56,067 nt of DNA from Bacteroidales bacterium (GTDB lineage Bacteria > Bacteroidota > Bacteroidia > Bacteroidales > Muribaculaceae): positions 1 to 56,067 of the forward strand of contig JALEMF010000065.1 in NCBI GenBank assembly GCA_022768005.1, read 5' to 3'. Shown here one piece after another: positions 1,199 through 38,981 of the stretch. Each line of letters starts with the position of its first letter. The first letter of the stretch is position 1. The notes beneath the pieces are model-generated. The model was not told where the DNA came from, ran no database searches, and saw nothing but the letters and a program-made list of their open reading frames with translations. The translations under genes and the position numbers were made by a program.

Positions 1199-1314
1199 AC
1201 GGTGAATAAAGAAACTATCATTATTAACAACAAATAAACCACATAAAACATATAGACGGAGGAACCTGAAAATCCGGAAATAGAGTAAGGAAAACTTTCA
1301 AAATAAAAATATTT

Positions 1315-12929: not shown

Positions 12930-12969
12930 TGTTTTATTTCATAAAATAATTATTTATATTACAAGTGTA

Positions 12970-13002
12970 AAGTGGCATAGCGGAAACCGGTATGCCACTT
13001 TT
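12970..13002 (+). terminator. intrinsic terminator
   Basis: Perfect 10-bp stem aagtggcata/tatgccactt followed by TT, 41 nt after the stop. Confidence 0.7.
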
Positions 13003-13006
13003 AATA

Positions 13007-13015
13007 TATATCACA
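13007..13015. repeat. left target-site duplication TATATCACA of element copy A
   Basis: Identical 9-mer at 13390..13398, directly abutting the other element end. Confidence 0.8.
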
Positions 13016-13389
13016 CACGGCTATTTCATTTAAAGTGGAAGAAATTGATTTGTTTTTATAAATGAAAGCAAGTAAAAGTTATCATCAGGGAGCCTCGGCG
13101 AGGCTCGGCTGTAAGTAACACCGTATAAGCACGTAAGTGCGCCATGCGGTGAAAGAATACCTCAATCTACATTCGCACATCGGGGATGTGCGGTCTGTGG
13201 TAGATGCTTTGTGTTTTGGTTATATTTTCACAGACCGAACCTCCACGAGGTTCGTTATATGTTGACGTTTCTATCTCAGGGTGGCGCACTATGTGCTTAC
13301 CCTGAGTTACTTACAGCCGAAAGCCTCCGACTTTCCTTGATAATGTCTTTTTACTCACTCTATTATATATTTTAAATGAATGAGCCGTG
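13016..13389 (+). mobile_element. foldback MITE-like non-autonomous element, copy A (374 bp)
   Basis: Terminal inverted repeats CACGGCTATTTCATTTAAA and (reverse complement) CACGGCTCATTCATTTAAA. Flanked by a perfect 9-bp direct repeat, with no ORF. The two arms are about 70 percent self-complementary around a central hairpin at 13191..13237. Confidence 0.75.
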
Positions 13390-13398
13390 TATATCACA
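13390..13398. repeat. right target-site duplication TATATCACA of element copy A
   Basis: Identical to 13007..13015. Confidence 0.8.
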
Positions 13399-13441
13399 AA
13401 AACAATATCAATTTTTGTTTGTATATTACGATATAAATTGA

Positions 13442-13449
13442 TAGTTTTG
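13442..13449 (+). promoter_or_regulatory. -7 box TAGTTTTG
   Basis: Lies 59 nt upstream of the ATG at 13508. Confidence 0.5.
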
Positions 13450-19251: not shown

Positions 19252-19325
19252 TGACTCGTACAGGATTCAAACCTGTAACCTTCTGATCCGTAGTCAGATG
19301 CTCTATTCAGTTGAGCTAACGAGCC
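19252..19325 (-). tRNA. tRNA-Arg (anticodon ACG)
   Basis: The reverse complement folds as a cloverleaf: acceptor GGCTCGT/ACGAGTC, anticodon stem TCTGA/TCAGA with loop CTACGGA, T-arm ACAGG-TTTGAAT-CCTGT. Length 74 nt. Confidence 0.93.
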
Positions 19326-19364: not shown

Positions 19365-19438
19365 TGACTCGTACAGGATTCAAACCTGTAACCTTCTGAT
19401 CCGTAGTCAGATGCTCTATTCAGTTGAGCTAACGAGCC
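19365..19438 (-). tRNA. tRNA-Arg (anticodon ACG), identical tandem copy
   Basis: Same 74-nt sequence as 19252..19325, with a 39-nt spacer. Confidence 0.93.
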
Positions 19439-33152: not shown

Positions 33153-33177
33153 TCATTTTACAAGATATCAAACTAAA

Positions 33178-33210
33178 AGCCGCATCGCAAAATCCGATGC
33201 GGCTTTTTCA
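33178..33210 (+). terminator. intrinsic terminator
   Basis: gccgcatcg-caaaatc-cgatgcggc hairpin followed by T5. Confidence 0.8.
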
Positions 33211-33417
33211 TTTATAATTGTCTGAATATTTCAGAATTAAGGACAATGCCAATATGGTCACAGTAGGAATTGCATACGATATGAATTGGGGAAAATCTTA
33301 TAAGACAGGAAAAAGAGGATTAATAATTCAGACAACGTAGATGGTATAGTAAAATAAAAGAAGCGCTGATAAAAAATACTGAATCAAAAAGTGTGTGTAG
33401 ATTCTTCTGTCTATGGG

Positions 33418-33426
33418 CAAATTCGA
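33418..33426. repeat. target-site duplication CAAATTCGA of element copy B
   Basis: 8/9 match to CAAATTCAA at 33827..33835, directly abutting the other element end. Confidence 0.65.
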
Positions 33427-33826
33427 CACGGCTCTTTCATTTAAGAATATACAGTAGAGTTAGTAAGAAGACAACTTTTTCAGGGGAACTCTGAAACATT
33501 CGATTGTAAGCAACTCAGGGTAAGCACTTTGTAAGCCACTCTGAGATAGCCATATATATTGTGGGCGCACCTCTGAAACAGTGCGTTCTGTAAAAGAATC
33601 AGGATTTTTTCATTAAATATTTATTACAGACCGTGCATCTCCGAAGCACGATTATATCGGAAGTTTGCCTATCACCGGGTGGCGCACTAAATGCTTACGC
33701 ATTAAGTGCTTACCGGGTGTTTCTTACAGCCGAGCCTCGCCGAGGCTCCCTGATGATACAGTCTTTACCTGCTTTCATTTATAAAAAATTATATCAATAT
33801 CTTCTACTTTAAATGAAAGAGCTGCG
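33427..33826 (-). mobile_element. foldback MITE-like non-autonomous element, copy B (400 bp), inverted relative to copy A
   Basis: Ends CACGGCTCTTTCATTTAA and (reverse complement) CGCAGCTCTTTCATTTAAA. Its reverse complement is collinear with copy A and includes an identical 35-mer (33723..33757 vs 13081..13115). No ORF. Confidence 0.72.
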
Positions 33827-33835
33827 CAAATTCAA
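33827..33835. repeat. target-site duplication CAAATTCAA of element copy B
   Basis: 8/9 match to 33418..33426. Confidence 0.65.
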
Positions 33836-38897: not shown

Positions 38898-38981
38898 TGC
38901 TCGAAGCGGGACTCGAACCCGCACAGCCGCAATGGCCAAGGGATTTTAAGTCCCTCGTGTCTACCATTCCACCATTCGAGC
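38898..38981 (-). tRNA. tRNA-Leu (anticodon UAA)
   Basis: Reverse complement GCTCGAA...AGGGA-CTTAAAA-TCCCT...long variable arm...GCGGG-TTCGAGT-CCCGC-TTCGAGC-A. Length 84 nt. Confidence 0.92.

Follow-up and report, generated by a model that had tools for sequence, protein, structure and literature searches.

We report here that a 374-bp intergenic block in a genome of the Muribaculaceae is a recently inserted miniature transposable element without a transposase gene. The block (copy A; positions 13016 to 13389, forward strand, of the 56,067-nucleotide stretch of DNA that was analyzed, hereafter the window) is very probably a nonautonomous transposable element (MITE) of Muribaculaceae with ISAs1-type terminal inverted repeats of 18 to 19 nt. 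It shares its ends and its 9-bp duplication length with transposase-encoding elements, its insertion varies among strains, some of which have an exact empty site, and it belongs to a multicopy family whose members have different flanks. Its interior consists of two inverted, nonidentical copies of a ~135-nt three-hairpin module that has not been described before and that is numerous in at least one related organism.

Ends and target-site duplication of copy A

Copy A is organized as terminus, leader, forward unit, reversed unit, leader, and terminus. The left terminal inverted repeat (CACGGCTATTTCATTTAAA, 13016 to 13034, forward strand) has the same 18-nt end that bounds autonomous ISAs1-family elements, and it is identical at 17 of 19 positions to the right one (13371 to 13389, reverse strand; reverse complement CACGGCTCATTCATTTAAA). 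Both termini are directly abutted by the 9-mer TATATCACA, which matches at 9 of 9 positions on the left (13007 to 13015) and the right (13390 to 13398) and is present as a single copy in empty alleles. These ends and this duplication are not due to chance: the terminus pattern, allowing up to 3 mismatches, has 4 matches in the window where 0.03 would be expected, two 9-mers 300 to 500 nt apart agree at 9/9 positions with a probability of 1.2e-5 per placement, and a terminal inverted repeat of at least 17/19 together with a 9/9 flank occurs in the window only at copy A.

A sequence-only reading of the window had described an ORF-free 374-bp block with inverted-repeat ends, identical 9-mers abutting both of them, a central hairpin, and no transposase in the window, and all of these points were borne out. 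The open reading frames of copy A are only 40 to 54 aa long; the two sides of the central hairpin (CGGTCTGTG at 13191 to 13199 and CACAGACCG at 13229 to 13237) enclose a nonpalindromic spacer between the two units (13200 to 13228); and no ISAs1-like transposase is encoded in the 56-kb window, nor was an ISAs1 transposase gene found in the 58 loci recovered as carrying the unit. Relative to shuffled sequences, copy A folds with a z score of -10.9 as DNA and of -12.6 and -13.5 as RNA of the two strands. A BLAST search of plasmid and phage collections recovered no match to copy A. As in prokaryotic MITEs generally, the element is small (374 bp, where such elements are under ~600 bp), has no coding capacity, carries terminal inverted repeats (17/19), is flanked by a duplication (9/9) with an empty site in relatives, and has copies at unrelated loci (copy B in the window and at least 10 foldbacks among L147 to L204).

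Insertion polymorphism and the insertion site

All contigs that encode an identical OadA-like protein upstream carry copy A, with few SNPs and indels of 1 to 3 nt, and other strains were reached through homologs of the downstream lipoprotein. Two of these (L134 and L136) read ...GCCACTTTTAATATATATCACAAAAACAATATC... and lack exactly 374 + 9 bp; the empty site anticipated from the sequence alone, ...TTTTAATATATATCACAAAAAC..., is found verbatim in other strains. L238 and L133 are empty too and differ by one SNP each in the 9-mer; L233 duplicates the L134 contig and is not a separate empty allele. The serS gene is ~98% identical to that of the window in same-species genomes, which places the empty-site genomes in the same species, and ~93.5% identical in L133, which by this measure is a sister species. 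The presence of the empty site both within the species and in its sister indicates that the ancestral state is empty, and the insertion of copy A is therefore polymorphic within the species.

The insertion lies between the terminator hairpin of the upstream OadA-like gene (12969 to 13001, forward strand), which ends 5 nt before the duplication, and a Bacteroidetes-type promoter of the lipoprotein cluster (TTTG ... TAGTTTTG, 13414 to 13449, forward strand), which begins 16 nt after it and which we take to be a promoter from its fit to the Bacteroides -33/-7 consensus. This ~60-nt terminator-promoter spacer (the region of window positions 13002 to 13413) is an insertion hot spot. L135 has an unrelated IS (DUF772 / DDE_Tnp_1_6) whose end lies a few bases upstream of the copy A site, and in most other strains (the comparison also covered L216 to L239) different gene cassettes start right after the terminator, GCCACTTT. 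Three contigs of the same species by serS (L130 to L132) carry an element 89% identical to copy A in the opposite orientation, which abuts the same TATATCACA at the one junction seen. The inverted allele differs from copy A by 11%, including swapped hairpin versions, whereas the flanks differ by ~2%, and a second independent insertion or a conversion from another copy is for this reason favored over a simple in-place flip, though not settled.

Elsewhere in the window, Rfam places a DUF805b RNA motif at 1256 to 1291 (forward strand; 42.7 bits against a gathering threshold of 35.6), upstream of an ORF at 1315 to 1620, and there are three tRNA genes on the reverse strand (19252 to 19325, 19365 to 19438, and 38898 to 38981), the first two of which form a tandem pair with identical scores. 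The window also encodes a PhoH protein, and its protein cluster (at least 90% identity) has a member whose annotated source is a Muribaculaceae MAG.

Assignment of the ends to the ISAs1 family

A scan of 185,579 species genomes with CACGGCTNNTTCATTTAA recovered at least 119 loci. Among the matches listed, nearly all were in Bacteroidales (Muribaculaceae, Prevotella, Bacteroides, Phocaeicola, and Butyricimonas), and many lay 37 to 76 nt from a contig end and pointed outward, as would a multicopy repeat that breaks assemblies. The same terminus was also seen at contig ends of MAGs labeled Roseburia, Oscillospiraceae, Bulleidia, and Eubacteriales (L005, L021, L055, L098, L100, and L118), and these contigs are probably misbinned Bacteroidales rather than instances of cross-phylum transfer. 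None of the listed loci had an interior like that of copy A or B. Eight other paired elements of 146 to 363 bp in various Bacteroidales (L014, L042, L041, L030, L114, L031, L105, and L017) have the same 18-nt terminus, 9-bp flanks that match at 8/9 or 9/9, and unrelated interiors, which indicates that one ISAs1-type end serves a whole set of different MITEs. A 90-bp mini-element with the same termini was observed at L080 (3570 to 3659), with a duplication that is not clear (5/9).

Longer elements with these termini and a transposase gene exist, in keeping with the proposal from the sequence alone that the block derives from a DDE transposon, a proposal that the further copies and the empty sites support as well. 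A 1,593-bp element with these ends (L019) carries a degenerate DDE_Tnp_1_assoc + DDE_Tnp_1 gene, and five further loci have related transposase genes just inside the terminus. An intact 376-aa protein from Phocaeicola coprocola (L078) and a 380-aa protein from L085 match the NCBIfam model NF033564, "ISAs1 family transposase," across its full length, with scores of 235 and 230 bits against a cutoff of 70. We fetched contigs for three homologs of the L078 transposase and obtained complete autonomous elements of 1,529 to 1,538 bp whose ends are CACGGCTCTTTCATTTAA or differ from it by one mismatch; these elements represent seven independent insertions, each with a perfect 9-bp duplication (GGTAAGCCC, AATTTTACA, GATAACAGC, TATGACTCC, AATCATACA, TTTTCCTTA, and AGTATTAAG), the same length as that of copy A. 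The 18-nt end of the MITE is common to the transposase-encoding elements (L205 to L215, L019, and L078). Terminus, duplication length, and transposase family are thus tied together by complete elements, and the termini, which the sequence-only reading could not place in any named IS family, are of the ISAs1 type. The measured 9 bp agrees with the duplication range of 8 to 10 bp given for the ISAs1 family in ISfinder, and the 19 duplications that we collected show no obvious target consensus. An ISAs1-family IS has been reported to prefer intergenic sites in a gut-metagenome study (bioRxiv 10.1101/2023.10.06.561241).

The similarity between the MITE and the IS is confined to the terminal 18 to 23 nt in BLAST comparisons, and an nhmmer search found no interior unit in the autonomous copies. 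That only the ends are shared rules out an origin by internal deletion of the IS (a "type I" MITE) and makes the element a "type II" MITE. A 1,706-bp candidate autonomous copy (L063) was rejected, as its flanks match at only 3/9 and its 436-aa ORF is unlike an ISAs1 transposase on reading.

A three-hairpin unit in the interior

An alignment of six half-elements, from copies A and B and the L130 copy, shows that each arm consists of a terminus, a leader, a first hairpin (H1), a linker, a second hairpin (H2), a variable spacer, a third hairpin (H3), and the motif GGTCTGT. H1 has a 7-bp stem and a 3-nt loop; the outer stem of H2 has 7 bp and leads to an internal loop (TAA/GCCA) and an apical GCAC-loop-GTGC; and H3 has 8 bp. 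The linker, GGCTGTAAGnAAC, is invariant and single stranded and adjoins conserved hairpins. In the left unit of copy A (13087 to 13199, forward strand), H1 is formed by 13090 to 13096 and 13100 to 13106, the invariant linker reads GGCTGTAAGTAAC (13107 to 13119), the outer stem of H2 is formed by 13119 to 13125 and 13145 to 13151 around an inner GCAC-GTAA-GTGC (13129 to 13140), and H3 (13174 to 13181 and 13185 to 13192) is followed by GGTCTGTG (13192 to 13199), all on the forward strand. The right unit (13229 to 13338, reverse strand) has H1 at 13319 to 13335, H2 at 13275 to 13306, and H3 at 13236 to 13254, and its stems (GAAAGTC/GGCTTTC, CTCAGGG/CCCTGAG, and CGAACCTC/GAGGTTCG) differ from those on the left, so that the two arms have distinct versions of all three stems, each version complementary within itself.

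The two inverted units make copy A look like a 70%-complementary palindrome, and the palindrome is a by-product rather than a conserved feature. The description of the interior as an imperfect palindrome was accurate as to the arms, which have 68% reverse-complement identity over 288 nt, and has to be replaced in its substance, as the arms are two inverted three-hairpin units rather than a simple decayed palindrome. Searches of Rfam gave no family match at the gathering threshold for the whole window, nor in permissive mode for copy A and for an array of six units, where the only matches were to miRNA families and Ocean-VII at chance level (E values of 0.3 or above).

Covariation of the hairpins

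Among 132 distinct units, the stems occur as a few discrete, fully complementary versions: GAGCCTC/GAGGCTC, GAAAGTC/GACTTTC, and GTGCATC/GATGCAC for H1; CACCGTA/TGCGGTG, CTCAGGG/CCCTGAG, and CACCCGG/CCCGGTG for H2; and four versions for H3. In an alignment of 53 units (A3), 97.1% of cells were paired, compared to 85.8% in shuffles, and two-sided (compensatory) changes were present in 12 of 26 pairs (117 cells). The covariation score was 0.273, versus 0.089 in shuffles, a value reached by 0 of 500 shuffles, and slid controls scored 0.061 or less. RNAalifold independently predicts the same three hairpins, and we conclude that the pairing is real.

The pairing may be maintained by selection, acting on RNA or on single-stranded DNA, or by templated correction within quasi-palindromes, which is a known neutral route to compensatory change. 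Several features are strand specific: a G.T wobble is fixed in the H2 stem that occurs most often, and it would be an A.C mismatch on the other strand; the apical loop of H2 is G-N-A in about 80 of 125 units; and GNRA tetraloops occur in longer variants, including the 14-nt insertion of copy B. Outside the fixed H2 wobble, a hand tally of the per-pair tables gave ~17 G.T and ~10 A.C cells, a difference too weak to decide the folding strand.

Copy B and the distribution of the unit

A second copy in the window (copy B; 33427 to 33826, reverse strand) is 400 bp long, lies in the opposite orientation to copy A, is ~71% identical to it, and is bounded by the two terminus matches in the window that lie outside copy A. 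One of its ends is decayed (CGCAGCTC..., CGCAG...), its flanks (CAAATTCGA at 33418 to 33426 and CAAATTCAA at 33827 to 33835) are a decayed duplication that still matches at 8 of 9 positions, and a 14-nt insertion lengthens the apical hairpin of H2 (ATGC-GTAA-GCAT). Copy B was present in 10 of 10 strains examined, always with this decayed end and with flanks matching at 8/9, and it is an older, fixed copy. Between copy B and the terminator of the peptidase M3 gene (33175 to 33207) is an unannotated spacer of ~220 nt (33208 to 33426), in which some assemblies call a 34-aa ORF; the 3' side of this terminator (GCGGCTTTTTCATTTAT) differs from the MITE terminus at 4 positions, a likeness that is probably fortuitous.

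Searching metagenomes with the linker/H2 motif gave 58 stretches, mostly from one co-assembly (SAMEA104315426). L187 proved to be the locus of the window itself from another assembly, and L186 was a false positive within a coding sequence. The further copies that were sought comprise copy B and at least 10 full-length, terminus-bounded foldbacks of 375 to 422 bp at different loci, of which the relatives of copy A are 88 to 96% identical and those of copy B 78 to 82%. Some of them have a 9-bp duplication of their own, including L188, which is 95.5% identical to copy A and has a perfect duplication (TCGGACAGG); in many foldbacks of the related organism, the duplications are decayed to 1 to 7 of 9 matching positions.

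Foldbacks are one of three arrangements of the unit. In a second, one terminus is followed by 2 to 4 head-to-tail units, and in a third, as many as 6 units are repeated in tandem, at periods of 138 and 102 nt; head-to-tail arrays are found at L163 (7282 to 7966), L172 (1 to 600), L170 (13191 to 13735), and L203 (36 to 712), the last of which consists of two back-to-back arrays, with three reversed units followed by three forward ones. Where a terminus is present, it lies 73 to 76 or 90 to 93 nt upstream of the unit motif, indicating two leader types. A recognizable terminus is missing in 44 of 86 arrays, the longest ones included, and part of the spread of the family may therefore not be by ISAs1-type transposition. 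Degenerate pieces of units lie next to many of the units that look solitary. The unit profile found only the four arms in the window and matched neither the autonomous IS copies nor the 119 other terminus loci listed, and the unit motif had no match in viral contigs. Repeats within coding sequence were ruled out, given that the unit spacings of 134 to 140 nt are not multiples of three.

Origin of the element and alternative explanations

The findings are consistent with a mechanism in which the transposase of a full-length ISAs1-type element located elsewhere would bind both ends of the MITE and insert it at staggered cuts 9 bp apart, the repair of which would produce the flanking TATATCACA duplication; copy A would have landed by this route in the ~60-nt gap between terminator and promoter, apparently a permissive spot. 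We infer that this mobilization in trans involves a helper IS in the genome of copy A itself. An ordinary intergenic palindrome, such as a bidirectional terminator, with a coincidental 9-mer repeat could account for the location between a terminator and a promoter and for the strong folding, and its probability is close to nil. The chance of a 9/9 flank match is very small, the same ends are found on transposase-bearing elements, and the hairpins of the units are without T-runs, with one weak terminator-like match inside copy A (sigma-70 promoter and terminator scans are uninformative for Bacteroidetes); the reading is refuted by the additional copies and by empty alleles that lack exactly the block and one 9-mer.

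Two other explanations concern the hairpins. It is unlikely that the block is primarily a structured noncoding RNA gene or a cis-regulatory RNA, with the hairpins as the functional product and the flanking repeat as incidental. The strong covariation of all three hairpins, their prediction by RNAalifold, and the strand-specific wobble and loops do argue for an RNA, but exact empty sites, a 9-bp duplication, and copies with different flanks are the marks of mobile DNA, Rfam has no match even in permissive searches, and no Bacteroidetes -33/-7 promoter motif was seen on reading through copy A. Uniform arrays also show no preferred orientation to the upstream gene (23 versus 22), which rules out a function of the units in 3'UTRs. 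Taken as a claim about the interior, an RNA function can coexist with a MITE. Alternatively, the units could be REP/BIME-like or IS200/IS605-like repeats spread by a hairpin-recognizing HUH/Y1 transposase, with the ISAs1 ends as a secondary vehicle. Such an origin would explain why about half of the arrays, including the longest, are without any terminus, and it would fit the invariant single-stranded linker beside conserved hairpins, the head-to-tail periods of 138 and 102 nt, and the strand-specific features of the hairpins; we nevertheless consider it very unlikely, as copy A is bounded by ISAs1-type termini and by a duplication of 9 bp, which is not a product of HUH enzymes, solitary units beside degenerate fragments fit decayed arrays rather than fresh insertions, and replication slippage suffices to explain the growth of arrays. 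No Y1/RAYT gene was noticed in passing among neighboring genes, which were viewed unsystematically.

We tentatively raise the possibility that the ~135-nt unit, composed of H1, the linker GGCTGTAAGnAAC, H2 with its TAA/GCCA internal loop and G-N-A apical loop, H3, and GGTCTGT, is a new class of functional structured element, RNA or single-stranded DNA, that has an activity of its own and has been acquired and disseminated by ISAs1-type MITEs in Muribaculaceae. If this were true, the activity could be, for example, that of a protein-recognized selfish repeat or that of a regulatory or processing signal.

Implications and comparison with known systems

Our literature search found no paper on ISAs1-derived MITEs or on any MITE in Muribaculaceae, a major but poorly studied gut family. 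The ends, duplication, empty site, parent IS family, and within-species polymorphism described here make a well-documented case of recent MITE activity in this family. One 18-nt ISAs1-type end is common to many small elements across Bacteroidales, and these elements break metagenome assemblies. Such elements, placed between terminators and promoters, could alter the expression of surface-protein genes. The kind of MITE is itself already known; the new part is the covarying three-hairpin interior module, which is absent from Rfam and deserves transcriptomic and biochemical attention.

Compared to ISAs1-family IS (NCBIfam NF033564; Pfam PF13808 + PF01609), the MITE is alike in its 18-nt end (CACGGCTCTTTCATTTAA), its 9-bp duplication, and its intergenic sites, whereas the IS is ~1,530 bp long and has a transposase gene and the MITE is 374 bp long, has none, and shows no similarity past the first 18 to 23 nt. 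The REP/BIME repeats of Proteobacteria offer another comparison; REPs are single hairpins of 20 to 40 nt that have a conserved 5' tetranucleotide and are tied to RAYT (Y1) transposases. The present unit is likewise an abundant intergenic hairpin repeat that occurs singly, inverted, or in arrays, but it is ~135 nt long, has three hairpins, and in about half of its arrays starts with an ISAs1-type terminus. Correia elements of Neisseria are ~100 to 150 bp long, have a TA duplication, and owe their pairing to the terminal repeats, and we know of no parent IS with matching ends for them. Copy A differs from them in that its pairing comes from two inverted internal modules. Correia elements and other foldback MITEs (reviewed in PMC10969869) resemble the present element in being small and intergenic and in having terminal repeats and a transcript that could fold into a long hairpin.

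The nearest precedent is BrickBuilt / MITEPgRS of Porphyromonas gingivalis, which are likewise Bacteroidales MITEs with only the ends of an IS and with internal repeats. These elements share only IS5-type ends with the resident IS (Klein et al. 2015, PMC4596501), are strictly intergenic, and contain variable numbers of internal tandem repeats, each 23 or 41 nt long; they have short, irregular duplications, and their repeats have not been reported as covarying hairpin modules (PMC4596501). The MITE described here differs in having ISAs1-type ends, a 9-bp duplication, and ~135-nt three-hairpin units that are arranged in inverted or tandem order.
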